A DNA stretch of 64,000 nt from Nemertoderma westbladi. Lineage: Eukaryota; Animalia; Xenacoelomorpha. Every line of letters starts with the position of its first letter. Position 1 is the first letter of the stretch. Positions 4,847-59,719 of the stretch are shown here, in pieces. The stretch spans positions 50,944-114,943 of the forward strand of contig JAUCBJ010000606.1 in assembly GCA_032718475.1 (NCBI GenBank), read 5' to 3'. The position numbers and the translations under genes were made by a program. Under the pieces are notes generated by a model. That model worked only from the letters and a program-made list of their open reading frames with translations, made no database searches and was not told the origin of the DNA.

Positions 4847-4882
<36 letters not shown>

Positions 4883-10052: not shown

Positions 10053-10351
10053 AATTTTTGTTTGGGTTTCCGGTACCGGTACCGGTATTTTGGTTCCTTG
10101 ATTCAGTTGGTGGTATTCTAAGGCTTATATATTACATCGAGTTTGATTCGCTGCCTACGTTTGCCATGTACATAAGCTGATATTGGATATCAGTTCGTAT
10201 ATTATTTATTATTTGTTATATATTAGCAGCATCATCGCAGTGTTATACTAGATTATGAGCAATGCCCAATAATAGCTGTCAGACCCTCGGAGTTAAGCAG
10301 CTACATACCGGTAGGTATACATAAGTACTATATACTTTCGTTCGCAATTGT

Positions 10352-26735: not shown

Positions 26736-29700
26736 AAACTGACTATATATAACTACTATATATATAACAAACTAACTATATATAACTACTATATATAACA
26801 AACTGACTATATATAACTACTATATATAACAAACTGACTATATATAACTACTATATATAACAAACTGACTATATATAACTACTATATATAACAAACTGAC
26901 TATATATAACTACTATATATAACAAACTGACTATATACAGTATAACTACTATATATAACAAACTGACTATATACAGTATAACTACTATATATAACAAACT
27001 GACTATATATAACTACTATATATAACAAACTGACTATATATAACTACTATATATATAACAAACTGACTATATATAACTACTATATATAACAAACTGACTA
27101 TATATAACTACTATATATAACAAACTGACTATATATAACTACTATATATAACAAACTGACTATATATAACTACTATATATATAACAAACTGACTATATAT
27201 AACTACTATATATAACAAACTGACTATATATAACTACTATATATAACAAACTGACTATATATAACTACTATATATAACAAACTGACTATATATAACTACT
27301 ATATATAACAAACTGACTATATATAACTACTATATATAATAAACTGACTATATATAACTACTATATATATAACAAACTGACTATATATAACTACTATATA
27401 TATAACAAACTGACTATATATAACTACTATATATAACAAACTGACTATATATAACTACTATATATATAACAAACTGACTATATATAACTACTATATATAT
27501 AACAAACTGACTATATATAACTACTATATATATAACAAACTGACTATATATAACTACTATATATAACAAACTGACTATATATAACTACTATATATAACAA
27601 ACTGACTATATATAACTACTATATATAACAAACTGACTATATATAACTACTATATATAACAAACTGACTATATATAACTACTATATATAACAAACTGACT
27701 ATATATAACTACTATATATAACAAACTGACTATATATAACTACTATATATATAACAAACTGACTATATATAACTACTATTTATATAACAAACTGACTATA
27801 TATAACTACTATATATAACAAACTGACTATATATAACTACTATATATAACAAACTGACTATATATAACTACTATATATAACAAACTGACTATATATAACT
27901 ACTATATATAACAAACTGACTATATATAACTACTATATATAACAAACTGACTATATATAACTACTATATATAACAAACTGACTATATATAACTACTATAT
28001 ATAACAAACTGACTATATATAACTACTATATATAACAAACTGACTATATATAACTACTATATATAACAAACTGACTATATATAACTACTATATATAACAA
28101 ACTGACTATATATAACTACTATATATATAACAAACTGACTATATATAACTACTATATATAACTACTATATATATAACAAACTGACTATATATAACTACTA
28201 TATATAACTACTATATATAACTACTATATATAACAAACTGACTATATATAACTACTATATATAACTACTATATATAACAAACTGACTATATATAACTACT
28301 ATATATAACAAACTGACTATATATAACTACTATATATAACAAACTGACTATATATAACTACTATATATAACAAACTGACTATATATAACTACTATATATA
28401 ACAAACTGACTATATATAACTACTATATATAACAAACTGACTATATATAACTACTATATATAACAAACTGACTATATATAACTACTATATATAACAAACT
28501 GACTATATATAACTACTATATATATAACAAACTGACTATATATAACTACTATATATAACAAACTGACTATATATAACTACTATATATATAACAAACTGAC
28601 TATATATAACTACTATATATATAACAAACTGACTATATATAACTACTATATATATAACAAACTGACTATATATAACTACTATATATAACAAACTGACTAT
28701 ATATAACTACTATATATAACAAACTGACTATATATAACTACTATATATAACAAACTGACTATATATAACTACTATATATAACAAACTGACTATATATAAC
28801 TACTATATATAACAAACTGACTATATATAACTACTATATATATAACAAACTGACTATATATAACTACTATATATAACAAACTGACTATATATAACTACTA
28901 TATATAACAAACTGACTATATATAACTACTATATATAACTACTATATATAACTACTATATATAACAAACTGACTATATATAACTACTATATATAACTACT
29001 ATATATAACAAACTGACTATATATAACTACTATATATAACAAACTGACTATATATAACTACTATATATAACAAACTGACTATATATAACTACTATATATA
29101 ACAAACTGACTATATATAACTACTATATATAACAAACTGACTATATATAACTACTATATATATAACAAACTGACTATATATAACTACTATATATAACAAA
29201 CTGACTATATATAACTACTATATATAACAAACTGACTATATATAACTACTATATATAACTACTATATATAACTACTATATATAACAAACTGACTATATAT
29301 AACTACTATATATAACTACTATATATAACAAACTGACTATATATAACTACTATATATAACAAACTGACTATATATAACTACTATATATAATCTTTATAAC
29401 TACTATATATAACAAACTGACTATATATAACTACTATATATAACAAACTGACTATATATAACTACTATATATAACAAACTGACTATATATAACTACTATA
29501 TATAACAAACTGACTATATATAACTACTATATATAACAAACTGACTATATATAACTACTATATATAACAAACTGACTATATATAACTACTATATATAACA
29601 AACTGACTATATATAACTACTATATATAACAAACTGACTATATATAACTACTATATATAACAAACTGACTATATATAACTACTATATATATAACAAACTG

Positions 29701-29879
29701 ACTATATATAACTACTATATATAACAAACTGACTATATATAACTACTATATATAACAAACTGACTATATATAACTACTATATATAACAAACTGACTATAT
29801 ATAACTACTATATATAACAAACTGACTATATATAACTACTATATATAACAAACTGACTATATATAACTACTATATATAA
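26736..29879 (+). repeat. 31-bp satellite (CAAACTGACTATATATAACTACTATATATAA)n, about 3.1 kb
   Basis: 31-bp period with TA slippage variants. Confidence 0.98.
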
Positions 29880-30877
29880 GCTTTCCCACTATTAGGGCCA
29901 CCTTTTAAAGGTCCAATGGCCCTTAAATGGCCTTGGGCTTGGAGCAATGGCCCTAATCCTACTACGATGGCCCAAAAGGTACACGTCCTCTTAGGGCAAA
30001 TATGGCCCACCTAGAACAAAATGGCCCAATCTAGGCATAATGGCCCAAAATAAACAATTACAAGGAAATTGCCTTTAGTTCTTATGAATTTAACTTGCAC
30101 CCCTAGCGGTAAACAATAGTATTTATTATCAATTTAATTCTACAGCCAAAAATGCCTTTGCAGATATTTTAAAAAATATATATATCTACAATAACGCATA
30201 CAATTCACTTTTGTGTAATTTCTGATTATGAGTTGTACAATAAGTAGTTTTTAGACGATTTTAAGTCTTTCGTTACAGATAATTATTATCACTTATGACC
30301 GACAGTCAAAAACGCGGAAGTGATTTCTCGAGTTAATGGCGCAAAGTGACCGGAAACACAAAATATGTGTTTTTTAGATGATTTAAAAAATTTATTTATT
30401 TAAATTTCAAACATTAGTGGCGGTGTTTTCTACCCAAAACAATAAACAATACCTTTTCACTAATGGTTAATTTGCGCCACTATTTCGATGTCTCAGCAGT
30501 TTGAATATCGAAACTTGTGCAAACAAAATATGTTAAATTGTAAATAACAATACTGTTTTAATAAATTCTCACTGACAAGCGATTAAAATTTGTGCTTTTT
30601 TAAGAAATAATGTATGAGCGTTCGGTACCTCTAGGAAGGATAACTATTTCGCGTTCTATACACTTCATTATTAACATTTTGTCATTGGTGGGGGGTTAGT
30701 TTATAGACTAGCCTAAATACATCCTACGACCCCTACGAATTCCATCCCCCACCAGTAATTCATATATTGGAGACATAAATGTAGACGTTTTGCCTCTTAC
30801 CCTAATGTAACAATTATCTATAGGCCTATTAAATATAATGTGAATTTTATCCCGTATTAATTAAATCTAATAACTAT

Positions 30878-41226: not shown

Positions 41227-41396
41227 TTATGAGTTACCAGTGGAGCACGGGCCTTTTAGTATAAGCCACATATAGAATTATATTCCCTAAATGCCGTGGA
41301 TTTTCAAAATTTTATTTTATTCGAATTAACTTTGTAAAGATTGCTTTGAGTTCTCATTAGTATTGGTTCTATCTATTATGCATCTATCGGTCAAGT

Positions 41397-41483
41397 GGTT
41401 CAGTAGCTCAGTTGGTAGAGCGTTGGAAATTATAAGTGTAGTAGGTATCGAGTTCGAATCCTAGTAAGTGCGAATTATTTTTT
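41397..41483 (+). ncRNA. Degenerate tRNA-like/Pol III cassette in LTR U3 (second copy 57926-58012)
   Basis: A box TAGCTCAGTTGGTAGAGC, B box GAGTTCGAATCC, downstream T run; acceptor and T stems pair poorly. Confidence 0.6.
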
Positions 41484-41680
41484 GTGCAGAATTTCAACTC
41501 ATTTAAATTAACCGCTACAAATTAATTGCATTTGTCTGTACCAATAAGGCTGTAGTTATTTGATTGTAACCAATGTCGTGCAAGTTATATATTAGCTGGA
41601 CCAATAAGCTATCTTTAAAACCTTGTTAGAACCCATAGAACAATCGAGAATTTTCTCGATTGATTGCGGCACAAATTTAG

Positions 41681-41790
41681 TATATAAAGGTGCGATTCGT
41701 TCATTAGTTATCAATCACTACTCAATCTACCTAATACAATCATTTATTCTGTCGTGCTTAGTTTATTCTCAGATTACATTGTATTATAAT
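41681..41790 (+). promoter_or_regulatory. Putative LTR TATA box, initiator and poly(A) signal
   Basis: TATATAAAGG at 41681, TCATTAGTT about 20-28 nt downstream, AATAAA at 41783 followed by a T-rich tract. Confidence 0.55.
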
Positions 41791-43190
41791 TGTATCTTTT
41801 GTAATAAAAGTCAGAAATACTAGTCACATCTCAGCTTTTCTATCTGTTTTACTATGGTTTCGCTACGGTGAACAAACTCAGGGACAGGATGGCCGGCTAG
41901 AGATCGGGCCGCAGCAATGAACGGGAACATCACGGGAATGTAGACGAGAGACAACCCGCAATACCATCTAGTGTTATTCGCCCATCGCCTGAAAGGTTAG
42001 ACAGCGTTCGATCCTTGCTACCTAAGTGTAAGACCAAAAGATCAAAGGTAGACGTAGTGACACGCTGTAAGCCCAAAATTACATCATAGGGACTGTACTG
42101 TCTTGATTCAGGAAAAAACCGCAGTAGACCTTCATATTCCTACGGGGGAGGAGAGAGAGCAGATACTAGTACGCAGATAGGACGTAGGCACACCGGTACA
42201 AGGCATACACATTGGTTAGGGTGCAGCAAACTGTACGCTTAACTCTTGCTAAGTACAGGTGTGTGTGTGACTATTTGCAGTACGACCGTGTCTATTACAT
42301 CAGAACTTGTAGGCTAGGGGGTTGCTGTGTTTTCACCTGAATTGGGATTGTACCGTTCAGGCGGTAGGGCAGTTTACGCTAGGCGCAAATAAATCGAGGC
42401 TATCAGGGATATACTAACATCTACCGTGTCCCGCCAACGCCCTAATAGGAAGTTACCTGGACTACCTGGGTGACTAAAATTCTAGATAGGAGCCAGGATA
42501 GCTATTAGTACCCGTACGCCTACAGTAGTAAACTAACACATCTCTTCTTAGTATCAGGGACCTGGTACCTAAAATTGCCGAATTCTGGGCGTAGTATTAA
42601 CCTTATGCCTGAATTTGAGTCCTGGAAATACGCAAGAGGGGAAGGAACCTTATCATTCGTGAGTATTGGACCTACAAGTTATAAAATTAGAATATTCGTA
42701 AAATGCACACCGTACCCAGTAATTATATATGTGAAGGAGCAAAACTGCTTTTGACCGTTCAGAATTAACACGCGCGCGTTAGAAATTATTTACACCTCAA
42801 AATATATAAAATTAACTTTCGTCCTTACTGCACTTTGCTCGCTAGTTAGACATCTCCAAATCTGCTCTATACCTAACTAGCGTCCCTTTGCCCAACCATA
42901 TAAATCACACCGCGGCAAAGTATACGAGCCCCTTAGTCCGTCAGTGAGTCAGCCTGATTTTAGGATTCGCTGCGCGGGATTTTGTTTTATCGAAGTTTGT
43001 CTGCTCGTAGACTGTTTTCTGCCTCACCGGTTAAAAGAGATCGATACTGCAATATATTCGCTTACTTGGGGTTTACTGTTTTGGTGAGAAGGTCGGATTT
43101 ATGATTTGATTTACAAACTTTACAGTAGGATATTGCAGGTATTGTTACCGTCTCTTCCGATAGTAGGAATAGGCGTATCTCTCCAATTTA

Positions 43191-43219
43191 GTAGGAATAT
43201 GTTTTACTGAACTACGGTT
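43191..43219 (+). promoter_or_regulatory. Putative non-tRNA primer-binding site
   Basis: GTAGGAATATG directly abuts the 5' LTR, lacks TGG, and is the exact reverse complement of LTR 42133-42143 (CATATTCCTAC). Confidence 0.55.
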
Positions 43220-43997
43220 CGGTAGGACTAAAGTTTTTTGAAAAATTTGTATTTTGAGGTAAAAATTTGTATTTGATTAGCTAAGTGCTAATTTTTTGAA
43301 ATAAAATTTGATTTGAACCGCGTGTAAAATATTTTGGAATTGAATACCGGTGTTTAAAAGGGTTTAAATACCATATTGTACCGGTACAAAAATTTTCGTA
43401 AAGTAAAACCTAACTCTTTTGTTTTTCAGGATTCAGAACTCATTTCTAGACTGTAACGGGAGCAAGACCGTGTTTAGCAAGTTTGGGAGATAGATAACTC
43501 AACAACTTTGGTTGGGAAAATCGCGTTTCGTCCGCAACGTTAAAAACGGAAAGGTTCACGTCCGGTTTGTATCTGGGAATCTGTTTTTCTGGAGAATTAT
43601 TGGAGTGGGTGAGTTCGAAAAGTTGCATAAATAAGTTAGGCATTACCGTATTAGTTAAAATTATTGTGGGTTCCACTGTCTCAAGTATTTATGCATTCCG
43701 TACGATTTCTTTGTTCATTGCTGAATTAGTCCGTATTATTGTATTTAATTTACCTTTTGATAACGCATATCGTTATCCGATTTATTTGTTGTAAAATTGG
43801 CCGCTAGGCTAATTTTATTATATACTTATTCCGTGACATTTATTTGCTGTAAAATTGGCCGTTTAGGCTAATTTTATCCATCTGCTATAAAATCGGCCGG
43901 TAGGCTAATTTTATATGACTGTAATTAGTACCGTTTTATACAAATACGGTAAACTCGATACTTTGACACTCACTTTACTTGACTTACAACTACCGAA

Positions 43998-46900
43998 ATG
44001 AGTGACAAACAAGACTATACGAAGAACACACAAACCGACTATGACTCATGTGACGCGGATAAGTCAGCAGCGGAAGAACCACAGGGGAAGACTCGCGAGC
44101 CTACCGAACCTACACCGTGTGCGTCACCAGTACATCCAACGGGAGTACCGGATGCCGTAGTACGAGGCGACGGCAGGACCGAGGACTTTCTAACTGTTCC
44201 GCAACCTAGATATAGGGAAACGGAAATGGTAAGTTCAGCAGGAAGCACAGAAAGTGTGGTTAGAAGCGTCGGAGGATACATGGCGCATATAACCAGGAGC
44301 ATTGGAGAAGGCCAACGCATATTAGACGGGTTGACCGCTCCGATGTCTCGATTCGAGTTCTACACCCTCCAGGTTAGAGTACAGAGTAAAGTATATAAGT
44401 CCGTAGATAATTTAGTTGGCCTACAAGATCTAGCTAGACAGAGACAGGACATGGATACTCAACTTAGAATCCTCGAGAAACTAATGATCACTAGAGAGAA
44501 ACTGATTCAGTTTAAGTCGACGATTAGACAGATACAACAGGAACAAGCGGACCAGTTGTTAGGTGAGTCAGTTTCGGACGAATTATTACAGCCCGAGGAA
44601 GAACAGGAACTGTACCGACTGGATGGACAATTGAAACACCTGACGGATCACTTGCGCATGTGCGGCGAAGACGTCGGGGATTGGGAAACCGTGCCGGAGG
44701 CTACGAGGGAAACTTCGCTCGCACAAATCGAATCAGCACCGGGAATACTGGACCAATCGTTGGTAAGTATTCGTAGCGAAATCTGCGAGGGAAGTATAGT
44801 CACGTCAGAAGTTGCTCGACAACAGCAAGAATTCCACCGACAACGACAAGAAGTGGAGGAACAAGCTCAACTTCTAGTGATGCAGGCAGCAGTAGAAGAA
44901 GAGAAGCTACGCGTTGCGAATATAGCGAGAATCTCTCATCTACAGGAACAAGCTGAATTAGAAGCAGCTGAAGTAGAAAGGTTAGAGCGAGACATTGCCC
45001 GACAAGCGGCAGCGGCAGCGGCCGAGTCAGAGCGACAAGCGGCAGCGGCCGAGTCAGAGCGACAAGCGGCAGCGGCCGAGTCAGAGCGACAAGCGGCAGC
45101 GGCCGAGTCAGAGCGACAAGCGGCAGCGGCAGCGGCGGAATTAGAACGAGACAGGTTAGTTTCGGAAGCACGGGCCGAAATGAAAACACGGCAAATAAAA
45201 GCTCAATCCGCCATACGACAAGCAGAGTTTGAGGCGCAACAACGACAAACGGAACAACGAGAGAAGACAGCTAAACTTCATTTCGAACTTGAGAAGAAGA
45301 CGAGAGAATTAGCGAACGCCGAGGAAGATCTGGATCAAAAGGCCCGCGATCGATCGATGAGATCTCGTGACGGACATGATTTGGACCAGTTAGAGGTAAG
45401 ACATCGCCAAATTCAGGAACGGAAGAAGGAAGGAAGCGTAGGAGCACCCGGACGGGAACGACAATTAGTAAAAGACGTGTGTCAACGATTCCCACAGGTA
45501 ACTCATATGTTTGCACCGGTCACGACTAAGGAACTTATTTCGATTGCTGGTAGCAGCGATATCTCTCCTATCCATGGTGTGACGGAACACAGGTTTGTTA
45601 TTCCGGACAAGTTTACACCGCCAAGAGCAACGTCGTCGCCTATTCCGAAAGTCAAGGTAAGTAACCCACCGATTGCAGATCGTAGTAGTTTATTAGTCGG
45701 ACCTGCACTACTGACGACAAAACAGGTGAGTCCACCTTTGACACCTAAACCCGTTACGCACTACGATTACCCAATGACATTTCGGCCTACAAGGCCTTTG
45801 GATTCAAACGCGGTCGTCCGACCACCAGTTCAGTTTACGTCGCAATCTACGACTTCGAGGAAGACTTGTGAGCCTACCGAACAACGGAGAACAGTGGAGA
45901 CGCGACCATTCAACCAGTTTACATCGCAATCTACGACTTCGAGGAAGACTTGTGAGCCTACCGAACAACGGAGATCAGTGGACGATGTTCCGAAACGAGC
46001 CGTTAGAATTCGAACGACGCAACGGACGCGAGCACGTCGACCACCATATCCAGATGATAGTAGTACTTCAAGCGAATCGGATTACCCGAAACGCGAGGTA
46101 TTTAGAACAGGGGCGGCCGACGAATATAAACGCGAGCGTTCAGACAACTCCTTTGCAGACAATCCTCCACAGAATACACCAACACAGAAGGCGTTACAAC
46201 CAACGAACGCAATTAGTACACAACAGTTCGCCGACATTCTGCGACCAGTTGTTAATAAGTTGGCTCAGATCGAGGAGCGTCTGGAGGAAGTTCAAACCGA
46301 CAGTTCGAGAAATTCCGAATTCGAACACAATAGACACCCGAAGGGACCACAAAGACCGGTACCTTCAAACCCCACATCGTATCAGGGAAAAGCGCCAAGA
46401 AGGGAGAACATCAACCAGACTACCAACCAAGGACGCGAAACTCTGAACGTTGCCGAGGAGATAGCAAAATTCGCAGCCAGACAGGGATTGCCGGTACAAC
46501 AACCACCGAAGTTTTCCGGTAGCTCGAAACACTGGCATACCTTCGTAGACTATATTGAATCCCAGATCGCCGTGTGCGCCTTTACATCACGAGAGAAGTT
46601 CAATTACTTGCTCCAAACGTTGTCAGGAGAACCTAAACGTTTGGCGGAGACTTTCGTCGGTGTACCAGACGCTTTCGAACTAGCGTACGATCGTTTGACT
46701 TCGATATACGGAGGTACAGTGAGTATGGCCAGGTCAGTAATAGAAGAACTCTGTAAGGGAGGGGCTATCACTAAACCCGTCGACTTACTAAAACTGGCCG
46801 ACGAGATTAAGAACGCTATCACTACCTTAAGATCAATTGGACAACTGGATTACGGAAATACCCCGACAGTTTTATTAAAGATAATAGGACGACTCCACCA

Positions 46901-49900
46901 TCGACTTCGTCGGGAGTGGAGGAAGGTCGAATATCAGCGAGAGGAGCGAGGAGGATTCCTAAAATTAGAAGATGTGTACCTTTTAATATCCAGGGAGGCG
47001 GTAGTAGAGACTCGATCTAACTATACCGACCAGCACATCGTGGCAGAAGGGATCACACTGCCATCCTCCAACCGACAAAAACCCCAGACAACATCCACAA
47101 AGACGGCCACTTACGCCACACCGACGGAATCACGACAATTCTCAGACGGTAATAGAGTATCTGCGCCCATTGGAACGAAACAGACGAGACAGCAACTCAG
47201 CGCCGACTTCAACGGCTGCCAATACTGCGAACATTTAGGTAAGCGGTATATTGGTCACAAGTTACGAGGTTGTCGACAATTTCGCGAGTTGAACTCAGAA
47301 GAACGACGGCTGCAGATACGGCCACTGGACTCTTGTTGGCGGTGTACGCGACACGGACACGTCCGTAAGGATTGTCCAAATACCGACACTTGTCCATCCT
47401 GTGGACGCAACCACGACGGTCTGCTCCACACAGACAGCCACACGCCGACGAAACGCTTCGCCAGGGAACACCCGGAAGCAGCAGCGAGATGTGATGCGGC
47501 TTACCGAAAACGGGAATCGAAAACGACTCCGACTTTCGTGACCCATATAGAGGATTGCTTTTCAGAACAATCCGGATCGTCGGACGAAGAATCAGAAGAC
47601 GACGAATATTCAAATGGAGACGAACAACCGTCAATCGCGCTCCTGACCACTGACCAACTGAAGGGATTCAGTGTAATCCCGATTAAAGTTACTGGCACAA
47701 AAGGGAGCAAGAGGATTTACGCGATTCTAGACTCAGCCTCATCTCACAGTTACGTAGATGAAAAGATAGCTGACGTCGTAACAGATCTTAGACAAGGTAA
47801 GCACGTCAGTTATACAGTAAGTAGTATGCACGGCCAGCGTGCAATACCAGTGACACGAGTTAAGTTGGACTTAGACTCTCTTCTTCCAAAATCGCAACAC
47901 AGCGAGAGGGAGAGGTCTTTGTTGCCCTTTAGAGATCTAACCTTTGCGGCCACGAAGGACTTTAGTAACCTACTAGGTCCAGTGCCGGAACAATCTCTGG
48001 AGGACCGTAAGTATTTCAGACACCTTGGTGTACCCGAATGTCCTGTCAATTATAGATCGGTAGCAATGCTGATCGGGACGGACCAATTCAACCTACATCA
48101 GGTGTGGGAAACCAGACCATCGGCAGTTGTAGCAGGAAACGCATACGCCTGCAGAACGCCGATAGGGTGGTATACTCGAGCGCCTGTGCGCACACTAGAC
48201 GTAAGTGACGAGGAAGACGACGTACAGAGTACATGTAGTTTATTGACTACAAACTCAATTCATTCCTTTTCACACGACGTGAACCATACTACGCTACAGT
48301 CGACAAAACATCACAGACGTGTAACTAGTATGATAAGTCACAAGGAGCAGCTAACCCACAAGGTGAGTTTAGAAATTGGGGGGAAGATGAGTCAGCTAGA
48401 GATTCCATCGACGACAGATGATAGGCTTGCGAGTCTACCTACCCCAATAACTTCAACAGTGCCCATCGATATCGACGATGACGCGTTGAAAATTCATCAG
48501 TTGGAACAAGCCGCCTTGGACAAAGAATTAACGGAGAAGACTATCAGGTGGTTAGAACAAGATACAGCTGAACCTGGTAGCTACGACCCTTGTATGTCGG
48601 AACAGGAGAAACAATCTTTAAAGATCATGGAGGATACTATCCGACAGACGGAGGACGGACATTACGAGGTGGGGATGTTATGGCGTAGCCAAAGTCCTAA
48701 ACTTATAAATAACTACCCACTGGCTTTAAGACGTCTACACTCAATCCGACAACGTCTATTAAAGGACGAGAAAGCCCATCTGCAGTATAACACTCAGATG
48801 GAGACGTATTTGACGAAGGGATACGCTATCCGAATGACTAACCCGGAGCGAGTGACAGACCAGACGTACTACTTGCCACATCACTATGTGAGACATCCCG
48901 ACAAACCAGATAAAGTACGCGTAGTCAATGACTGTGCGGCTCTGTTTGAGGGAATGTCCCTCAATAGTGAATTGATGGATGGACCGAACATGAATAACTA
49001 TCTTATGGGGGTGATTATGCGCTTCCGTCAGCGTCAAGTAGCCTTTACTTGCGACGTAGAAGCGATGTTTCACCAAGTGAAAGCGTTAGAGCGAGACAGA
49101 GACAGTTTGCGGTTTCTCTGGTATCCGGAAGGGGACTTAAGTCTACCACCAGCGACTTACCAAATGCAAGTTCGCGTTTTCGGTGCCAGAGACAGCCCAA
49201 ATTGTACGATGTACGCCTTGAAGCAAGCCGCTAGAGATCAGAAACATCTGTATGACCCAGAGATAATTAGAATTGTAGAACGTGACTTTTACGTTGATGA
49301 CGGTTTACAAAGTTGCGACACAGTAGAACGTGCTACAACAGTAGCACATCAATTACGGGACTGCTTGGCGGGCGGAGGTTTTAACCTCACCAAATTCGCC
49401 TCAAACAGTGCCGAATTAGTTGACTCATTCGGAACTACTGAGCGTGGAGGTGGTGATATAGACCTAGAGTTCGAACCACTACCGACGACTAAGGTGTTGG
49501 GGCTCTTTTGGGACCCAAACACAGACAACTTTCGAGTGAAGGTGAGACTGGACAGTCAAGGAGACACACTGACCAAGAGATCATGCTTGTCAAAGTTGAG
49601 CCGATTGTTCGATCCGTTAGGATTCATCAGTCCAGTAATACTGCAAGCTCGCATTTATATGCGCAGTATATGGAAGGATGGACTAACGTGGGACGAGCCG
49701 ATCTCATCAGATCAAGTGGACTTATGGAAGACCTGGGAGGCGGAATTGTCTTCGTTAGAGGATTATTCCATACCCAGGGTTTACTTTCCATTACAGAGTA
49801 CATTTCCTGACAACTTGGAACTACACTGTTTTTCTGACGCCAGTGACAACGGGTTTGGTGTGGCAGCGTATTTGCGCAGACAAGTAGAATCGGACGAGTT

Positions 49901-52658
49901 CGATGTTTCGCTCATTACTTCCAAGGCTAAGACCATGCCTACTAAGTATATGACGACACCACGAGCCGAGCTACAAGCCGCGACCCTGTCAACCACCATC
50001 GTGAACCTCATACAGACAGAACTACAGTCGAGTTTACAGATATTTTATTGGACTGACGCGACGTTGGTTTTATTTTACATAAACAACGACACACTCGAAT
50101 TCAAGACATTCGTAGCTAACCGTCGCGCAGAGATTCTAGACCGTTCGATAAAAGAGGATTGGCGACATTGTCCCGGACCACAAAACCCAGCTGATATTGC
50201 GTCGCGAGGAATGATGCCTGAAGAATTCTGTAAACCGGAAAACAAAGAGTTTTGGCAACACGGACCCCAGTTCCTGCAGAAATCGACACAAGATTGGCCT
50301 CCGTTATACGACAACAAGTCCAACACCATTCCTAAGGACGCCGAAATCAAGAAACCAAAAAAGGGGAAGACAAAGAAAAAGACGACGGCGGCAAAACTCA
50401 AGAAAAAACCGAAGGCGAAATGGAAGGATATAACTTCAAAGGTCAAGAGAGGAAGACTTGCGAGCCTTTCTACACCAGACATATCGCCAGACGGTCGACC
50501 AGACACGTTACCAGACAGTCAACCAGACATTTTGCCAGACATATCACAAAATGTTCCACCAGACGTTAGTAACGCACTGACAAACAGTAAAGCCGCAGTT
50601 TCCCTATTGGAGCGGCCTTCTATTGACAAACAACCAGATACGTTACCAGACGTATCGCCAGACACACTACTAGACAGTCGACTAGACACTAGTAATGTAT
50701 TGACTAACAATAAAGCCGCAGTTTCCCTATTGGAGCGGCCTTGTATTGACAAACTACCAATTTTGACACACTTGAGCAACCATAAGCATGGTGAAACCTC
50801 ATGTATTGCAGATGTGGGTAGTACCTACGCTAATGTAAATACAGGTGTTACTTTGCGCTCAAGAGACATACCGAACTTACAACCTGTGGTGAGACCTGGG
50901 ATTAATGTCGGCAGAAAATTAAGTTTACCAAAACCTGCTGACCCCATAGAGTTCAAACCACCATTAGCGATCGACTTACAAAGTACCGACAATCAAGGTA
51001 AGAAGACAAAGAAGGACAAATTACTTGTAGACCCGGACGGATCAACAGTCAACAAGGGAATACTTACCGGCGGACCCGTGGGCCCTTCTAGTAATTCAAA
51101 ACCTTCCAAGTTCTCCATTGACTTACCTGATGACGTCACAAATACTTACGTCGACCGTATTGTAAACCTAACAGATTCTTGGTCAAACGCTTGCCGAAAA
51201 TTAGCGTGGATTGTACGTTTTGTACAATACGTTAAAGGCAAACGTGACTTCACACGTCGACTTACATTGGCTGAGATTGACAGGTGTGAGATCAAATTAA
51301 TTCGCCATTACCAACTGAGATATTTCGCGCGCGAATTCACATCTATAAGTCAAGGTCAACCAATCAAGTCGTCACCGATACTGAGTTGGAGTCCGATAAT
51401 TTATAATGGCTTAATTTGTCATAAATCTCGGCTTCAAAACATTGACTTTAACACGAACTTTAGGTACCCAATAATAATACCGCAACACCACGAACTACAA
51501 CGTGCAATGATACTGGACGCACATTTACATCTGAAACACGCAGGAAGACACCACTGTCTTTCCTACTTACGTACTAGATTTGTATTAATTAGACCCAGTA
51601 AAGCATTAAGTTCCGTGACACGTACGTGTATTATTTGTAAAAAGGTACATTCTAGAATAGGTACCCAAGAAATGAGTGAACTACCACAAGCACGACTTCA
51701 AGCATTCAGACCACCTTTTACAGAGACTGGAATTGATTGCTTTGGTCCCATACATACTAAACGTGGACGTATACTAGTAAAACGCTGGGGACTGATTTTC
51801 ACATGTATGTCCAGTAGGGCAGTTCACATTGAACGTGTGATGGATCTTTCCACCAACGCGTTTATACTAGCACTGCGGCGATTTATCGCTAGACGCGGAC
51901 TAGTAAAATGCTTGTACTCAGACCAAGGGACAAACTTTGTTGGTGCTCGGAATGAGATTGCTAGAGCCTTTAAGAAATTAGATCATGATCAAATCTCAAA
52001 CGAACTGCAACCTCACAAGATTGTTTGGAAGTTCAATCCTCCAGATAGTCCTTGGAGAGGCGGAGTCTGGGAGAGACTGATTAGATCTATAAAGACAGCA
52101 ATGGCAAAGGTCATTCCAGTAAACCACATATTAACAGACGACCAACTGACAACATTGTTTGTTGAAATCGAGGCAATACTAAATACTAGACCAATAGTAT
52201 TAGTACCCGATAACAAACAATCCCAGTTTGCTTTGACACCGGCACACCTGCTAATGCAGGCACCGACGACATTAACGCCGATTTCTATTCCAATAGAAAG
52301 CGACAGCTATGGTAGAAAAGCGTGGAAAATCACGCAACTACTAGCTAACAAATTCTGGGAAATATGGCAAAACCATTATTTGCCCTCTATTTCTGCCAGA
52401 ACAAACTGGTACAATAACACCCGCGCATTAAAGCCGGGAGATCACGTGCTGTTGGCGGAAGTGAATCTAAAAAGACGCTTCTGGATAACAGGTGTCATTT
52501 TAGCCACACATCCATCTATGGATGGAGTGACAAGAACTGTGACAGTACGGACAATTGACGGTCGTACAGTAGACAGACCGACTCAACGTCTCGTACTTCT
52601 TGAAGAGACTCGTAACGAGTCTGGAGACTACAAATCTCCACCTAATACTAGTAAATAA
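43998..52658 (+). CDS. BEL/Pao Gag-Pol polyprotein (coiled coil, Gag, 3 Zn knuckles, protease, RT, RNase H, integrase)
   Basis: PPKFSG..HW; CQYC..H..C, CWRCTRHGHVRKDC, CPSCGRNHDGLLH; protease ILDSAS; RT YLPHH, DVEAMFHQV, FYVDD; RNase H FSDAS, PRAEL, WTDA, NPADIASRG; integrase HH-CC, GIDCFGP, SDQGTNF, GGVWERL; 2886 aa uninterrupted. Confidence 0.97.
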   Translation: MSDKQDYTKNTQTDYDSCDADKSAAEEPQGKTREPTEPTPCASPVHPTGVPDAVVRGDGRTEDFLTVPQPRYRETEMVSSAGSTESVVRSVGGYMAHITRSIGEGQRILDGLTAPMSRFEFYTLQVRVQSKVYKSVDNLVGLQDLARQRQDMDTQLRILEKLMITREKLIQFKSTIRQIQQEQADQLLGESVSDELLQPEEEQELYRLDGQLKHLTDHLRMCGEDVGDWETVPEATRETSLAQIESAPGILDQSLVSIRSEICEGSIVTSEVARQQQEFHRQRQEVEEQAQLLVMQAAVEEEKLRVANIARISHLQEQAELEAAEVERLERDIARQAAAAAAESERQAAAAESERQAAAAESERQAAAAESERQAAAAAAELERDRLVSEARAEMKTRQIKAQSAIRQAEFEAQQRQTEQREKTAKLHFELEKKTRELANAEEDLDQKARDRSMRSRDGHDLDQLEVRHRQIQERKKEGSVGAPGRERQLVKDVCQRFPQVTHMFAPVTTKELISIAGSSDISPIHGVTEHRFVIPDKFTPPRATSSPIPKVKVSNPPIADRSSLLVGPALLTTKQVSPPLTPKPVTHYDYPMTFRPTRPLDSNAVVRPPVQFTSQSTTSRKTCEPTEQRRTVETRPFNQFTSQSTTSRKTCEPTEQRRSVDDVPKRAVRIRTTQRTRARRPPYPDDSSTSSESDYPKREVFRTGAADEYKRERSDNSFADNPPQNTPTQKALQPTNAISTQQFADILRPVVNKLAQIEERLEEVQTDSSRNSEFEHNRHPKGPQRPVPSNPTSYQGKAPRRENINQTTNQGRETLNVAEEIAKFAARQGLPVQQPPKFSGSSKHWHTFVDYIESQIAVCAFTSREKFNYLLQTLSGEPKRLAETFVGVPDAFELAYDRLTSIYGGTVSMARSVIEELCKGGAITKPVDLLKLADEIKNAITTLRSIGQLDYGNTPTVLLKIIGRLHHRLRREWRKVEYQREERGGFLKLEDVYLLISREAVVETRSNYTDQHIVAEGITLPSSNRQKPQTTSTKTATYATPTESRQFSDGNRVSAPIGTKQTRQQLSADFNGCQYCEHLGKRYIGHKLRGCRQFRELNSEERRLQIRPLDSCWRCTRHGHVRKDCPNTDTCPSCGRNHDGLLHTDSHTPTKRFAREHPEAAARCDAAYRKRESKTTPTFVTHIEDCFSEQSGSSDEESEDDEYSNGDEQPSIALLTTDQLKGFSVIPIKVTGTKGSKRIYAILDSASSHSYVDEKIADVVTDLRQGKHVSYTVSSMHGQRAIPVTRVKLDLDSLLPKSQHSERERSLLPFRDLTFAATKDFSNLLGPVPEQSLEDRKYFRHLGVPECPVNYRSVAMLIGTDQFNLHQVWETRPSAVVAGNAYACRTPIGWYTRAPVRTLDVSDEEDDVQSTCSLLTTNSIHSFSHDVNHTTLQSTKHHRRVTSMISHKEQLTHKVSLEIGGKMSQLEIPSTTDDRLASLPTPITSTVPIDIDDDALKIHQLEQAALDKELTEKTIRWLEQDTAEPGSYDPCMSEQEKQSLKIMEDTIRQTEDGHYEVGMLWRSQSPKLINNYPLALRRLHSIRQRLLKDEKAHLQYNTQMETYLTKGYAIRMTNPERVTDQTYYLPHHYVRHPDKPDKVRVVNDCAALFEGMSLNSELMDGPNMNNYLMGVIMRFRQRQVAFTCDVEAMFHQVKALERDRDSLRFLWYPEGDLSLPPATYQMQVRVFGARDSPNCTMYALKQAARDQKHLYDPEIIRIVERDFYVDDGLQSCDTVERATTVAHQLRDCLAGGGFNLTKFASNSAELVDSFGTTERGGGDIDLEFEPLPTTKVLGLFWDPNTDNFRVKVRLDSQGDTLTKRSCLSKLSRLFDPLGFISPVILQARIYMRSIWKDGLTWDEPISSDQVDLWKTWEAELSSLEDYSIPRVYFPLQSTFPDNLELHCFSDASDNGFGVAAYLRRQVESDEFDVSLITSKAKTMPTKYMTTPRAELQAATLSTTIVNLIQTELQSSLQIFYWTDATLVLFYINNDTLEFKTFVANRRAEILDRSIKEDWRHCPGPQNPADIASRGMMPEEFCKPENKEFWQHGPQFLQKSTQDWPPLYDNKSNTIPKDAEIKKPKKGKTKKKTTAAKLKKKPKAKWKDITSKVKRGRLASLSTPDISPDGRPDTLPDSQPDILPDISQNVPPDVSNALTNSKAAVSLLERPSIDKQPDTLPDVSPDTLLDSRLDTSNVLTNNKAAVSLLERPCIDKLPILTHLSNHKHGETSCIADVGSTYANVNTGVTLRSRDIPNLQPVVRPGINVGRKLSLPKPADPIEFKPPLAIDLQSTDNQGKKTKKDKLLVDPDGSTVNKGILTGGPVGPSSNSKPSKFSIDLPDDVTNTYVDRIVNLTDSWSNACRKLAWIVRFVQYVKGKRDFTRRLTLAEIDRCEIKLIRHYQLRYFAREFTSISQGQPIKSSPILSWSPIIYNGLICHKSRLQNIDFNTNFRYPIIIPQHHELQRAMILDAHLHLKHAGRHHCLSYLRTRFVLIRPSKALSSVTRTCIICKKVHSRIGTQEMSELPQARLQAFRPPFTETGIDCFGPIHTKRGRILVKRWGLIFTCMSSRAVHIERVMDLSTNAFILALRRFIARRGLVKCLYSDQGTNFVGARNEIARAFKKLDHDQISNELQPHKIVWKFNPPDSPWRGGVWERLIRSIKTAMAKVIPVNHILTDDQLTTLFVEIEAILNTRPIVLVPDNKQSQFALTPAHLLMQAPTTLTPISIPIESDSYGRKAWKITQLLANKFWEIWQNHYLPSISARTNWYNNTRALKPGDHVLLAEVNLKRRFWITGVILATHPSMDGVTRTVTVRTIDGRTVDRPTQRLVLLEETRNESGDYKSPPNTSK

Positions 52659-53316: not shown

Positions 53317-56300
53317 ATGGAGAAAGGGATACAAGGAGAGCCGAGATGGGGATATGATATCCAAGAGGAGGCAGCAGCGCCATTCGAAAGATTTGGAGCC
53401 AAGGATTATACTATATTTGGTATAAAAGAATTATCGGAAAGTACAGCGAAACTCGCGAGAACTAAATATGACTCGAATGTATTAAAGAGAAGGCAAAACG
53501 CATTAAACGAAAGAATCGAAAGTTTGCGCCAAACCTTCAACGAACTTTACCCGTACGATGCTTTGTGTGACACGGGAGACATTAGCGAAGACCCCGATAC
53601 TGAAATTAGTCGTTTGTATCATACCATGCAATACCTAAAGGCGCACGAACCTATGCCTGCGGTACGCGATGAATTCGATGGAATGCATCTTTACAGACGA
53701 ACTCGAGGGGACGATAGAGAAACCAAGGAAGCATTTTCAGTTTATAAACTTTATTATCAATGCGGTTCTTGTATGCGCGAACAACGAAATGCGATTCCGA
53801 TGCGTTTGAATAAGGAAAATCCCGAACCGATATTGGCGAGGTGTTCGAATCATCAACAACTACGCTACCAGGAAGGAGGGTATCCTTTATCGAATCCATA
53901 TCATTCATTTGCTATGACCGGACCAAAGGCGGGAGAAACTGTCATTTACCCACCTAAGGTTGTTGAACCCGATGTATTTGAACTTACGCTGGACGAGGCG
54001 AATCAGTCAACCCGCGAAAAGAAAGAAGCTCTTAGCCTATACAGAGCCTACAAGGCTTTCGAGAAAGGTGAGATGGAAGAATGGGGTGGAAGACTCGCGA
54101 GCCTACCTTGCCATTGGACGTCACACGATCAAACTTCAGCTAAGGAGATGACACCGGAAGTTTTCGAGAGCATAAACTTCGCTCAAAACGTTATTCAGAG
54201 ACTACAGATTGCATCCCCGGAGAGGCCAAGAGAAATGCAACCGTATAGTACTTCAGCTACGAAACCATTGAGTACGACACTCAATTTCCCTATTAGTATA
54301 CCAGTCCGACAGGATACGACGTACGAAATACCCATCGTGGATCATCCAGAAATCATTTCAAACTTGGAGTTTCTTCCTGCAGTTGTTTTCAGCGATATGA
54401 GTAAGATATATGATTTGCGTAGACATATTACTCAAAAGGTCGTGAACAACGTTCCACCTCATATCCAAGATTTTAAGGAACTGGATAGAGCTGGTGCCGA
54501 CATAGCTCCGAGTAATCTGAAAGGATATCTAACCAAGACGATTCGTTTATGGATTGGAATCGGAACCTTCGAGTCGGATACAGGTATTGCCGCAGATTGG
54601 CGAGGTAAGGTTATTCGTTTCGATGAGGATAAGGATATAGAGAAGATTTGGCAACCTTCGGAAGAATTGTTGGATGAATGGACTAGGACGTTTAGATCGT
54701 TTCAGGAAAACGGTTATATGTTTTACGATAACGAGGGCGGCAGTCATCAGCAGAGTTTGACTTCTAAGACTATACAGATTAGAGCGGCGGACGGAGTCCT
54801 GCACGTTTTCAGTAGACAGAGGAGCGACAAACGAATGCCGATACCTCCAGCGAATACAAAGCGACACCATCTTATAACCGATATAGTAAAGAAGATGGAC
54901 CAAGCTTGTAATATTGACGCTAGAATGCTACCGAAGATGGTAAGAAACATGATTTTAGATAAAACTGTTGTAAAGGTTGGATCAGGAGTAAGGGAGGATT
55001 TAATTAGCGACTTCGCCGGCATGACGGACAGCGATGACCGACTACCGACACCATACGTCGACACTCGACCTCTTATTCTGTGGTCTATAGAACAGGGATA
55101 TTTTCGTGAGTATAATACTCAGAAGACTGGAACTGGATACATTTCCTACCTGTTATTCAATTGGGATTATAAGGAAGGTAAAAGAAACAAGTATATTGAA
55201 ACTTATGGAGAAGGTGATACTCCAGATATGAGTGAGTTTGAATCACAGCTTAAATGGAGAGGATGCGTGTATTGGGCTATTACGTCACCTCCAAGAGCGG
55301 TCTTACAATATTATTTAGCGATAGAGTCGTCAGTGAATGTTTGCCTAATCGCCGACATTGTGTCTCGGACTCTCAAAAGACATCCACTTTGTCTCGGAGA
55401 AGATCATACGTTCTACATGGAAGGGAGAATTCGTACCGACGTGTTTAGACGATTCCTTGAACCCTTCTACAACTCCGACGCTCAGTGTAATGCCTTTACT
55501 CGAGCAGGATTTAGTATATTTCGAGACGTGTATCTTCGCTGTGCGGGATCTCTTATCGAAAGACCATCTATGTTTACATTGTTACCCTATGAAGGAGAAC
55601 GTATTGTGGAAATTACGGATGAATCACGGCAGACGCGCGCGCCTATCGGTCACCCCGGTGATGATTTCAACGTAACTACTACGATCGCCGACGATCCTTT
55701 AGAGGAACTTCTTGAGATAGAAAGGAACCTCCCGAAGAAATCTCAGACGGAGATTCGACAACTTGAAGCAACAGATGCTATAGTTTGTATACAACCTTCA
55801 GAAACCTACCAACCTATAGACCCAGATGATTACGATTATAGTGTGGGAGGAAGCGCTCGACCGATTGGAGATCTTATATACGAACGAGTGTGGTACCCTG
55901 CTAATACGATGTGTAGTAAATGTGGCGTCGCTGGACATCATATGGCAAAGTGCAGTGGAAAGCACATTACTACGACTCAGCTAATCTGTGGATGGTGTGG
56001 GGATCAAGGGTCTCATACCTTTTATACTTGCTGGAGATTTATGGCTCAATGTACTTACTGCAATATAAAGGGACATCGAGCATCTGAATGCCAACTGAGA
56101 GACATACCTTATGAACACGAATCTGTAAAACTTGTGAGGAAGTTATTTGATGAGTGGGAAGATTTAGCCGACGAACATGTATCGGCACAGAGAAGACGGT
56201 TTCCGATGAGAGCGCATCTCGGATTTTGGGCGGTAAATCCCCAGACGATGATGTCGGAAGGATATATCTCCGCTATGCCCCAATATGACGAACTTATCGA

Positions 56301-57042
56301 GGTTGTTGATATTTTGCCCCACGACAGCGGATTCCGAGTGGTGCGCGAGTATCTGTTACAGATTCACCCGGATAACAAAAACACGTGGAATTTTCAGAAA
56401 GTCGTAAATCGTATCACGTATGGTGAATTTGATCGTTTCCGAACCGAAAAGCGGAATAAAGGAGCTTGGTTAACCGTCGCATGGGCGTACCGAGCCGCGT
56501 TTTACCATAAACGTATACGAGCGAGCGTATTCGAGGAAGAAGAGGTCCTAGAGGCGACGAATATACCAGCCACTCCGGTTGCGCCGTCTGCACGTCACCC
56601 TCGGGAGGACGGGCAGGGAAGGATCATACGGGTCCAAAAGGTGGGCCAACAATTGAAGAAAATAATTAATGTAGAAGAACGCAAGGGAGTTGAGCCGACT
56701 ATTCGAGTTACTCGGGATACGGTATCACTTCCAAGAGAACCGGTAGGAGGATCGGGACATACACCAGCTGATCAACAGGGGGCGCAAGCTACTCTTGGGT
56801 CTGCGTCGTCCGCTTCTCACGCGTTCCCAGACGTTCTACCAACTGTAGCGACAACTGATCGGTCACGAGGAATTGGTCGAGGTTTTGGGATGCCAAATAG
56901 ACGAATTTGCGAGGAAATAGTTGCACCGTCTCTCAACGTCCCAAGTAAACCAGTGACTCGCCCCATTAGTCCCATATCGCGAGCAAAGTCACCTGTGCGC
57001 AGTTTTCGAGGACGCGGCAGGGCTCGATCAACTAAGCGATAA
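53317..57042 (+). CDS. Accessory ORF: DEDDy-like 3'-5' exonuclease domain plus three CCHC zinc knuckles
   Basis: ExoI-like FYDNEG...IQI, ExoII-like ILDKTVVKVGSGVREDL, YVDTRPL, ExoIII-like W..SPP...LQYYLAIE (about 54700-55330); CSKCGVAGHHMAKC, CGWCGDQGSHTFYTC, CTYCNIKGHRASEC (55911-56092); intact 1241 aa inside the LTRs. Confidence 0.75.
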   Translation: MEKGIQGEPRWGYDIQEEAAAPFERFGAKDYTIFGIKELSESTAKLARTKYDSNVLKRRQNALNERIESLRQTFNELYPYDALCDTGDISEDPDTEISRLYHTMQYLKAHEPMPAVRDEFDGMHLYRRTRGDDRETKEAFSVYKLYYQCGSCMREQRNAIPMRLNKENPEPILARCSNHQQLRYQEGGYPLSNPYHSFAMTGPKAGETVIYPPKVVEPDVFELTLDEANQSTREKKEALSLYRAYKAFEKGEMEEWGGRLASLPCHWTSHDQTSAKEMTPEVFESINFAQNVIQRLQIASPERPREMQPYSTSATKPLSTTLNFPISIPVRQDTTYEIPIVDHPEIISNLEFLPAVVFSDMSKIYDLRRHITQKVVNNVPPHIQDFKELDRAGADIAPSNLKGYLTKTIRLWIGIGTFESDTGIAADWRGKVIRFDEDKDIEKIWQPSEELLDEWTRTFRSFQENGYMFYDNEGGSHQQSLTSKTIQIRAADGVLHVFSRQRSDKRMPIPPANTKRHHLITDIVKKMDQACNIDARMLPKMVRNMILDKTVVKVGSGVREDLISDFAGMTDSDDRLPTPYVDTRPLILWSIEQGYFREYNTQKTGTGYISYLLFNWDYKEGKRNKYIETYGEGDTPDMSEFESQLKWRGCVYWAITSPPRAVLQYYLAIESSVNVCLIADIVSRTLKRHPLCLGEDHTFYMEGRIRTDVFRRFLEPFYNSDAQCNAFTRAGFSIFRDVYLRCAGSLIERPSMFTLLPYEGERIVEITDESRQTRAPIGHPGDDFNVTTTIADDPLEELLEIERNLPKKSQTEIRQLEATDAIVCIQPSETYQPIDPDDYDYSVGGSARPIGDLIYERVWYPANTMCSKCGVAGHHMAKCSGKHITTTQLICGWCGDQGSHTFYTCWRFMAQCTYCNIKGHRASECQLRDIPYEHESVKLVRKLFDEWEDLADEHVSAQRRRFPMRAHLGFWAVNPQTMMSEGYISAMPQYDELIEVVDILPHDSGFRVVREYLLQIHPDNKNTWNFQKVVNRITYGEFDRFRTEKRNKGAWLTVAWAYRAAFYHKRIRASVFEEEEVLEATNIPATPVAPSARHPREDGQGRIIRVQKVGQQLKKIINVEERKGVEPTIRVTRDTVSLPREPVGGSGHTPADQQGAQATLGSASSASHAFPDVLPTVATTDRSRGIGRGFGMPNRRICEEIVAPSLNVPSKPVTRPISPISRAKSPVRSFRGRGRARSTKR

Positions 57043-57799
57043 AAGGGAGGGCAAGGGTGGACGGAAGACTCGTGAGCCTTTCTTATGATTTGTGATTTAT
57101 TTGAATTATATGTTTTATATTTAGAAAGAAATTTAGAAAGTTTATATTTAGAAGGAACTTATATTTGAAAGATTTATGTTTCATATTTGAGATGCAAAGG
57201 TTTATATTATTCTAAACTTATGCAGTTTATATTTATATTTAAGTAAAGACTTATATTTAGTAAAACTTATATTTAGTAAGAATTTATATTTACGTGATTA
57301 TTTCGAACTTATGCAATTTATATTATTCCAAACTTATGCAATTTGTATTGTTCCGAATACTATATTTTATAAGCAGTATTTGTATTTACAGTGTAAAAGA
57401 GAAAGTTTTATAGACAGAAAAATTTGTGCTCAGAAAGACTCATATTTGTAATTATTCCAAACCTATGCAATCTACATTTAGGTACGAAAGTATTTGTAAT
57501 TACTTGAGATGCAATATTATTTGTATTTGTAATTGTTTGAATTTATGCAATATCTGAGATGCAATAGATTTATATTGGTGAATTTAATTTAGATTTATAT
57601 TGTACTTACTTAGTAAAGCCTTAAATACGTAAAGTTTGAATTTGTAATTATTTTGTATCGAATCATTACGTAGAAAGGAAGTATTGTTTGAAACTTAATA
57701 GTAAATATGTAAGTACGCCCTAAGTATTCTATAGTTTGATTGATTATTGGTGAAAACCGTATATTTTATGCACGATAATATCCTGTTTTCATGGAGCGG

Positions 57800-59719
57800 T
57801 ATAGAATTATATTCCCTAAATGCCGTGGATTTTCAAAATTTTATTTTATTCGAATTAACTTTGTAAAGATTGCTTTGAGTTCTCATTAGTATTGGTTCTA
57901 TCTATTATGCATCTATCGGTCAAGTGGTTCAGTAGCTCAGTTGGTAGAGCGTTGGAAATTATAAGTGTAGTAGGTATCGAGTTCGAATCCTAGTAAGTGC
58001 GAATTATTTTTTGTGCAGAATTTCAACTCATTTAAATTAACCGCTACAAATTAATTGCATTTGTCTGTACCAATAAGGCTGTAGTTATTTGATTGTAACC
58101 AATGTCGTGCAAGTTATATATTAGCTGGACCAATAAGCTATCTTTAAAACCTTGTTAGAACCCATAGAACAATCGAGAATTTTCTCGATTGATTGCGGCA
58201 CAAATTTAGTATATAAAGGTGCGATTCGTTCATTAGTTATCAATCACTACTCAATCTACCTAATACAATCATTTATTCTGTCGTGCTTAGTTTATTCTCA
58301 GATTACATTGTATTATAATTGTATCTTTTGTAATAAAAGTCAGAAATACTAGTCACATCTCAGCTTTTCTATCTGTTTTACTATGGTTTCGCTACGGTGA
58401 ACAAACTCAGGGACAGGATGGCCGGCTAGAGATCGGGCCGCAGCAATGAACGGGAACATCACGGGAATGTAGACGAGAGACAACCCGCAATACCATCTAG
58501 TGTTATTCGCCCATCGCCTGAAAGGTTAGACAGCGTTCGATCCTTGCTACCTAAGTGTAAGACCAAAAGATCAAAGGTAGACGTAGTGACACGCTGTAAG
58601 CCCAAAATTACATCATAGGGACTGTACTGTCTTGATTCAGGAAAAAACCGCAGTAGACCTTCATATTCCTACGGGGGAGGAGAGAGAGCAGATACTAGTA
58701 CGCAGATAGGACGTAGGCACACCGGTACAAGGCATACACATTGGTTAGGGTGCAGCAAACTGTACGCTTAACTCTTGCTAAGTACAGGTGTGTGTGTGAC
58801 TATTTGCAGTACGACCGTGTCTATTACATCAGAACTTGTAGGCTAGGGGGTTGCTGTGTTTTCACCTGAATTGGGATTGTACCGTTCAGGCGGTAGGGCA
58901 GTTTACGCTAGGCGCAAATAAATCGAGGCTATCAGGGATATACTAACATCTACCGTGTCCCGCCAACGCCCTAATAGGAAGTTACCTGGACTACCTGGGT
59001 GACTAAAATTCTAGATAGGAGCCAGGATAGCTATTAGTACCCGTACGCCTACAGTAGTAAACTAACACATCTCTTCTTAGTATCAGGGACCTGGTACCTA
59101 AAATTGCCGAATTCTGGGCGTAGTATTAACCTTATGCCTGAATTTGAGTCCTGGAAATACGCAAGAGGGGAAGGAACCTTATCATTCGTGAGTATTGGAC
59201 CTACAAGTTATAAAATTAGAATATTCGTAAAATGCACACCGTACCCAGTAATTATATATGTGAAGGAGCAAAACTGCTTTTGACCGTTCAGAATTAACAC
59301 GCGCGCGTTAGAAATTATTTACACCTCAAAATATATAAAATTAACTTTCGTCCTTACTGCACTTTGCTCGCTAGTTAGACATCTCCAAATCTGCTCTATA
59401 CCTAACTAGCGTCCCTTTGCCCAACCATATAAATCACACCGCGGCAAAGTATACGAGCCCCTTAGTCCGTCAGTGAGTCAGCCTGATTTTAGGATTCGCT
59501 GCGCGGGATTTTGTTTTATCGAAGTTTGTCTGCTCGTAGACTGTTTTCTGCCTCACCGGTTAAAAGAGATCGATACTGCAATATATTCGCTTACTTGGGG
59601 TTTACTGTTTTGGTGAGAAGGTCGGATTTATGATTTGATTTACAAACTTTACAGTAGGATATTGCAGGTATTGTTACCGTCTCTTCCGATAGTAGGAATA
59701 GGCGTATCTCTCCAATTTA
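57800..59719 (+). repeat. 3' LTR (1920 bp)
   Basis: Direct repeat of 41271-43190; preceded by a short purine-rich GGAGCGG; followed by TSD CCACA. Confidence 0.96.

Follow-up and report, generated by a model that had tools for sequence, protein, structure and literature searches.

The closest described parallels to the element reported here are the Tf1 and Tf2 retrotransposons of Schizosaccharomyces pombe and the Tf1/sushi group to which they belong. These elements likewise lack a tRNA-type primer-binding site (PBS) and possess an 11-nt complement of their own long terminal repeat (LTR), and in both cases the primer would be freed by cleavage where the paired segment ends on its 3′ side (as described in the accessible portions of PMC7175516 and PMC5341516). 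However, Tf1/sushi elements encode a Ty3/gypsy chromovirus polymerase, whereas the element of Nemertoderma westbladi encodes BEL/Pao domains. Furthermore, compared with Tf1, the paired segment of the N. westbladi element is probably not 5′-terminal but preceded by ~420 nt of transcript, is separated from the PBS by 1,047 nt, is embedded in a long predicted hairpin and could be deleted together with its partner by a likely intron. Outside the yeast Tf elements, self-priming has also been inferred from PBS–LTR complementarity for the plant TAR copia elements Houba and Osr-1 and for Tcn1, yet these represent copia and chromovirus lineages, and the accessible part of PMC6317226 contains no BEL/Pao case. 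Fungal GalEa copia elements, which are characterized by a Conserved Hairpin Site, resemble the N. westbladi element in having no tRNA PBS and in carrying a hairpin just past the 5′ LTR, but according to the available sections of PMC5445492 no LTR complement was found for them, whereas one is present here.

Members of the Belpaoviridae (Semotivirus; ICTV, PMC8742986) share with the N. westbladi element a single ORF encoding Gag-PR-RT-RH-IN, three Cys-His knuckles and the Pfam domains of the family. Nevertheless, the family is described as having an 18-nt PBS for tRNA-Arg or tRNA-Gly, LTRs of 0.2–1.2 kb and genomes of 4.2–10 kb, compared with the absence of a tRNA PBS, an LTR of 1.92 kb and a total length of 18.4 kb in N. 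westbladi, where an exonuclease-like ORF additionally occupies the env position. An RNase D-like DEDDy ORF3 downstream of pol, with the same Asp-to-Glu motif change, is known from the bdelloid rotifer elements Juno and Vesta, although these are not BEL/Pao elements, their DEDDy ORF is not linked to priming in the accessible text of PMC5408684, and the ORF2 reported here differs in its length of 1,241 aa and its three knuckles. The open-access literature searched contained no description of BEL/Pao self-priming, and nothing on BEL self-priming occurs in the available portions of PMC3118150, PMC554778, PMC9094657, PMC5443660, PMC3601003 and PMC6431247.

The window, i.e. the whole 64,000-nt stretch of N. 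westbladi DNA that was analysed, contains an intact, very young BEL/Pao retrotransposon of 18,449 bp, the annotated features of which, apart from the target-site duplication, are assigned to the plus strand. Its 5′ LTR (41271–43190) and 3′ LTR (57800–59719) each measure 1,920 bp, were identical in a self-comparison and exhibit the termini TA..TA, not TG..CA. They are flanked by a target-site duplication (left copy 41266–41270, right copy 59720–59724) of 5 bp, as is characteristic of BEL/Pao elements, and the left edge of the 5′ LTR is also marked by loose contig ends in sequencing runs X4 and X5. Given these LTR bounds and the presence of the duplication on both sides, position 43191 represents the first base past the 5′ LTR. 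The uninterrupted gag-pol ORF (43998–52658; an open frame of 2,891 codons) encodes a Gag with three Cys-His knuckles followed by protease, RT, RNase H and integrase, which is the BEL/Pao domain order, with the YVDD of RT at 49290 and the acidic catalytic motifs of RT, RNase H and integrase present. The BEL/Pao assignment made in the preliminary description was corroborated by Pfam matches to DUF1759, Peptidase_A17, an integrase zinc finger and DUF5641; protein homologues at 38–44% identity bear the same Pfam set, and among the best 120 of 747 proteins none exceeds 44% identity in RT. Contig depth, which is not a copy count, suggests a high copy number of the element in organism A.

The polypurine tract (57791–57799) is weak, and no purine run of at least 7 nt was found in the 100 nt preceding the 3′ LTR, whereas the longest purine run of the LTR adjoins the predicted primer end (see below). 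Short tandem peptide repeats occur in Gag (45005–45130 and 45831–45982), and RNase H and integrase are separated by a long linker with repeats (50300–51200). Elsewhere in the window, host-like Roc-COR and CARD coding stretches (2561–11419) surround a minus-strand non-LTR element (5174–8530) with PHD, endonuclease and RT, while a 30-nt tandem array (12055–14900) overlaps long open frames and an AT-rich tandem array with a 31/33-nt unit is located at 26600–30000.

The preliminary description had proposed that the primer of this element resides within its LTR, and the observations on which this was based were confirmed. No TGG is found at or near 43191, and the non-tRNA PBS (43191–43201), which directly follows the LTR, is from its first base onward the exact complement of 11 nt at 42133–42143 (copy in the 3′ LTR at 58662–58672); the primer is predicted to have its 3′ terminus at 42143. 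This complement stops at a purine run of 16 nt (42144–42159), longer than any other in the LTR. When the LTR is represented by a Markov-1 model, such a match is expected 6.5×10⁻⁴ times by chance. An LTR complement was found for only 13 of 14,599 internal 11-mers, and the single case among 2,955 GC-matched internal 11-mers is the PBS itself. Including flanks, the best PBS:LTR duplex reaches −38.4 kcal/mol, and in a coarser duplex scan none of 60 GC-matched internal targets attained the PBS value (mean −24.2, best −36.0). The match is real and above chance.

The pairing had also been suggested to extend imperfectly into the leader. Such an extension (7+5 bp) exists, but it does not clearly exceed chance (reached by 173 of 3,000 flank shuffles; P=0.34 in a second test). 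Its leader strand is also claimed by a predicted hairpin directly 3′ of the PBS (43201–43228), which is closed by a UNCG-type tetraloop and the upper seven pairs of which have a probability of 0.89–0.96. A 7-bp in-register helix of 42150–42156 with the U5 end (43178–43184), absent from the preliminary description, is borderline, as it was reached by 291 of 3,000 flank shuffles and obtained P=0.011 in the second test. A primer assembled by splicing, as predicted for relatives (see below), was ruled out for the N. westbladi element, in which the best match is contiguous.

An alternative is that the PBS binds a small RNA of the host, tRNA halves included, the LTR match having arisen by chance or as a by-product of a repeated motif and a hairpin. 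The first six letters of the PBS indeed occur in four copies within ~100 nt (43125–43227), compared with 0.58 expected, and the copy at 43163, matched by 9 nt of the LTR segment, could act as a decoy site. The segment moreover already has a partner within a hairpin and contains a frequent variant (both described below), and a genome scan covers many elements. tRNA priming is assigned to the family by the ICTV (PMC8742986), and tRNA halves prime some copia elements (accessible part of PMC6317226). No tRNA genes were called within the 64-kb window. The low chance expectation at a fixed anchor position argues against such a host RNA, as do the relatives of the element.

These relatives were retrieved by an RT-alignment search of metagenomes, which yielded 77 loci (from the best 80 of 586) with an RT only 34–47% identical to that of the element; a search of viral contigs yielded no related loci. 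A repeat on both sides of RT was found in 26 of the 77. A contiguous complement to the own LTR was present in 1 of 15 tested loci (L001, 11 nt). An intron-aware search, requiring only GT..AG ends, was then applied to 12 loci, after removal of L015 (a duplicate of L017) and of L012 and L051 (LTR end not visible). In this comparison with relatives, as proposed in the preliminary description, own-LTR complementarity was found in 10 of the 12 distant metagenomic loci, with a length of 10–15 nt and with letters that differ by family, each family's PBS matching its own LTR. Except for L001, in which the match is contiguous, the positives (nine loci, eight families) match only after removal of a predicted GT..AG LTR intron of 70–100 nt (L002, L017, L018, L019, L025, L028, L030, L037 and L047), with GTAAG donors in eight of the nine introns and only 5–9 matching nt upstream of the intron. 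Of the other two loci, L024 exhibits a TGG (tRNA-type) PBS, and L027 was rejected as an LTR locus, its repeat being a coding overlap.

For the 10 positives, the match was reached by 0–3 of 300 shuffles and by 0–4 of 300 internal 25-mers, and in a 10×10 duplex table no segment pairs with a PBS other than that of its own element, which is partly so by construction. The first paired letters are GT in the N. westbladi element and in eight of nine relative families, and in L001, the two LTRs of which are just 77% identical to each other, the segment is kept in both. Twelve further loci with uncertain LTR ends, left out of these counts, gave best matches of 6–14 nt compared with control maxima of 6–10 nt; candidate contiguous own-LTR complements, again with uncertain LTR ends, were noted at L012:270, L054:1002 and L029:599 (11, 10 and 14 nt, respectively). 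The flanking helices are not conserved in the relatives (Fisher P=0.20 and 0.87). A single host RNA cannot explain own-LTR complements of different letters in 10 of 12 loci, and the GT start of the pairing common to the families likewise speaks against priming by host RNA, which we consider unlikely for the N. westbladi element. The relative loci may derive from few hosts, and in a FastTree phylogeny of 68 sequences the RT of the element is placed on a long branch without supported placement. The self-priming arrangement appears, from these matches, to be common among such BEL/Pao elements, which does not imply that the N. westbladi copy inherited it.

Where the genomic RNA starts determines the geometry of priming. 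The preliminary description placed the start upstream of the segment, which is supported by a TATA box (41681–41688), from which a main start site is predicted at ~41710–41725, by a splice-like joint and by the intron-split complements of the relatives. A likely GT..AG intron of 1,434 nt (41996–43429), with a branch-point-like CTAAC and a pyrimidine tract, would remove the PBS complement and the PBS together. The splice-like joint (41993 to 43428) was observed in one X4 contig (depth 250, its shorter arm covering 25 nt) and is absent from X1, X3 and X5, i.e. it is present in one of four runs. Run X4 is labelled 'DNA?'; this joint, together with serial A>G changes in a contig, leads us to infer that it represents RNA, although the joint may instead reflect a DNA deletion. 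If the joint is a splice, some RNA must start upstream of 42133–42143. One X4 contig covering 42319–43019 is diverged, with many A>G changes, as from dsRNA editing.

An initiator (Inr)-like motif at 42134 paired with a DPE-like 5-mer (42161–42165) nevertheless leaves room for a start of the Tf1 type. In such an ordinary Tf1 geometry, a TATA-less promoter would start the genomic RNA at 42133/42134, the first 10–11 nt would serve as the primer, and the TATA promoter would give rise to spliced mRNA only. Position 42134 is the only one in the LTR at which an Inr-like motif is combined with a DPE-like motif at +28, and the length of the match equals the 11 nt of Tf1. Alternative starts are also known to decide whether Tf2 RNA carries its self-primer (accessible portion of PMC5341516). 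However, both motifs are short and were sought post hoc, the split of the complement by an intron in nine relative loci, with 5–9 nt upstream, favours internal primers, and the hairpin that contains the segment starts 33 nt upstream of 42133. We therefore regard a Tf1-type start as improbable.

Two polyadenylation signals bear on strand transfer. The first AATAAA (41803–41808) lies upstream of the PBS complement, and its exclusive use would leave the cut RNA without a repeat for strand transfer; the second (42388–42393, with its 3′ LTR copy at 58917), 245 nt past the predicted cut, would supply this repeat, and is the only one of the two predicted to do so. Five relatives carry an AATAAA close to the end of the LTR, in each case downstream of the segment. 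X4 contig depth peaks immediately before the first AATAAA, and the excess ends near it, a pattern which, being contig depth only, is a weak hint against priming in cis.

The LTR furthermore contains a Pol III A-box/B-box-like pair (41404–41460), followed by T6 at 41478; it is the sole such pair in the window, occurring once per LTR (also at 57933). From its sequence, 41404–41483 could yield a tRNA-like transcript of ~85 nt, to which the 5S sequence in Cassandra elements provides a parallel. A nematode Cer element reportedly encodes its own tRNA-like primer. In the N. westbladi element, the 5′ part of the tRNA-like head pairs weakly with the leader (−17.7 kcal/mol), but the head was rejected as a primer, since pairing between its 3′ portion and the PBS is poor, and neither ARAGORN nor Rfam returned a call for it.

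Self-priming by an LTR-derived RNA, the central proposal of the preliminary description, draws support from two sequence-based findings, namely the chance estimate and the own-LTR matches of the relatives. All variants considered, self-priming in some form appears probable. To its most specific form, namely self-priming in cis with an internal primer freed at 42143/42144 by RNase H in the manner of Tf1, we assign about an even chance. Under this scheme, the unspliced genomic RNA would start near 41715, with the segment 42133–42143 first held in the 250-nt hairpin. The Gag nucleocapsid would move the segment onto the PBS, a step that pairing of the purine run with the U5 end over 7 bp would assist, after which the RNase H of the element would cut between 42143 and 42144, leaving a primer that keeps a long 5′ leader of ~430 nt. 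Strong-stop DNA would be copied from 43190 back to 42144 and transferred to the stretch of the 3′ LTR between the cut and the second AATAAA, while the spliced RNA, devoid of primer and PBS, would serve only as mRNA. The processing step unlike that of Tf1 which the preliminary description had postulated is not required: Tf1 is cut at the same 3′ edge of its paired segment, between nt 11 and 12 of the paired 5′ end (accessible portions of PMC7175516), so that a transcript with a longer leader could be processed in the same way.

The hairpin that would first hold the segment is a predicted rod-like RNA structure of 94 pairs (42100–42348), with the PBS complement in its 5′ arm. Its folding energy of −101.2 kcal/mol (z=−5.64) was reached by none of 200 shuffles and is the strongest among 15 LTR windows, while the minus strand of the region folds like shuffles (z=−0.81), which rules out a mere DNA inverted repeat. 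Being sense-strand-specific and the strongest window of the LTR, the hairpin looks selected as RNA. It has no match in Rfam, and a comparable fold is missing in seven of eight relative LTRs. In three of four long folds of naked RNA, the primer:PBS helix has a probability of 0.00, and in the fourth ~0.27; forcing it costs 15.5 kcal/mol, with the U5-end helix forming along with it. This unfavourable folding indicates that the two partners pair only with the aid of a chaperone, after a cut or when the primer is a molecule of its own.

A separate primer molecule is the basis of self-priming in trans, in which the 250-nt hairpin would release a short RNA that anneals to the PBS of another genomic RNA. 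Its excision could proceed by cuts of the Drosha/Dicer type, or the exonuclease of ORF2 could trim it out of the excised intron or of a short LTR transcript. The strength and strand specificity of the hairpin and the unfavourable cis pairing are consistent with this reading, as are the ability of 42122–42128 to pair with 43203–43209, the likeness of ORF2 to DEDDy exonucleases with Air2-like knuckles and the fact that two 22-nt steps from the hairpin base at 42100 end at 42143, an arithmetic coincidence noticed post hoc. Against it stand the seven of eight relative LTRs without a comparable fold, the absence of ORF2 from the 77 loci and the putative nature of its exonuclease activity, for which structure models reach mean pLDDT values of only 33 and 35. 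Priming in trans is accordingly judged to be rather unlikely.

ORF2 itself (53317–57042; 1,241 aa) occupies the env position and contains a DEDDy-like 3′–5′ exonuclease domain (~54720–55330) and three Cys-His knuckles (55912–56100). No Pfam family passes for the exonuclease-like domain, and word-index sequence searches with ORF2 returned no match. In a protein atlas, however, residues 420–760 are placed beside 3′–5′ exonuclease clusters (24 of 30 matches of the PF01612 type, 0.92), and a HMMER scan returned five matches, three with the same architecture and two restricted to the knuckles. The distant homologues P0122, P0124 and P0125 have acidic motifs and three knuckles in common with ORF2. 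In the four-sequence alignment, with respect to the DEDDy motifs (ExoI D-x-E, ExoII D, ExoIII Y-x3-D), the D-x-E and the ExoII D are invariant, whereas the ExoIII residue is E in ORF2 and D in two of the three homologues. A profile of these homologues matched EXD2 (E=0.0024), WRN exonuclease (E=0.11) and Air2 (E=0.00087) in the PDB, while AlphaFold2 models were of too low confidence for a fold call. By sequence, ORF2 resembles a DEDDy 3′–5′ exonuclease with Air2-like zinc knuckles. ORF2-like sequence was found in none of the 77 loci from the best 80 of 586, many of which are incomplete, so the exonuclease looks dispensable for the self-priming trait, and ORF2 is probably accessory. A pyrimidine-AG stretch near 53286 could represent the acceptor of a subgenomic mRNA.

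Variation within the segment was examined in 40 of 165 variant rows. Variants at 42118, 42121 and 42135 occur at 11–20% in X1 and X3 and at 94% in X4, in the latter on one contig. The change at 42121 converts a hairpin G-U pair to A-U, whereas that at 42135, inside the 11-mer (11% in X1, 13% in X3 and 94% in X4), breaks a primer:PBS pair unless the PBS co-changes; none of these 40 rows falls within 43191–43219.

Taken together, self-priming is likely to occur in a group described as tRNA-primed (ICTV, PMC8742986), with the hairpin and the exonuclease-like ORF representing two features particular to the N. westbladi element. If correct, this would mean that self-priming has arisen once more, this time in animals and with a primer that is internal rather than 5′-terminal, and it would explain why PBS-based annotation misses such elements. 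Fragments of tRNA silence tRNA-primed elements, and self-primed elements would escape this silencing. A bolder reading, which at present seems doubtful, is that such BEL/Pao elements make an internal RNA primer that is kept locked, by an intron split in the relatives and by the 250-nt hairpin here, and that host dsRNA nucleases or the element's own DEDDy exonuclease excise it as a small-RNA primer. A locked primer of this kind would represent a third priming mode beside tRNA priming and Tf1-type 5′-end priming, and would provide a first role for retrotransposon-borne DEDDy ORFs. The element links a concrete substrate to these unexplained DEDDy ORFs of retroelements.
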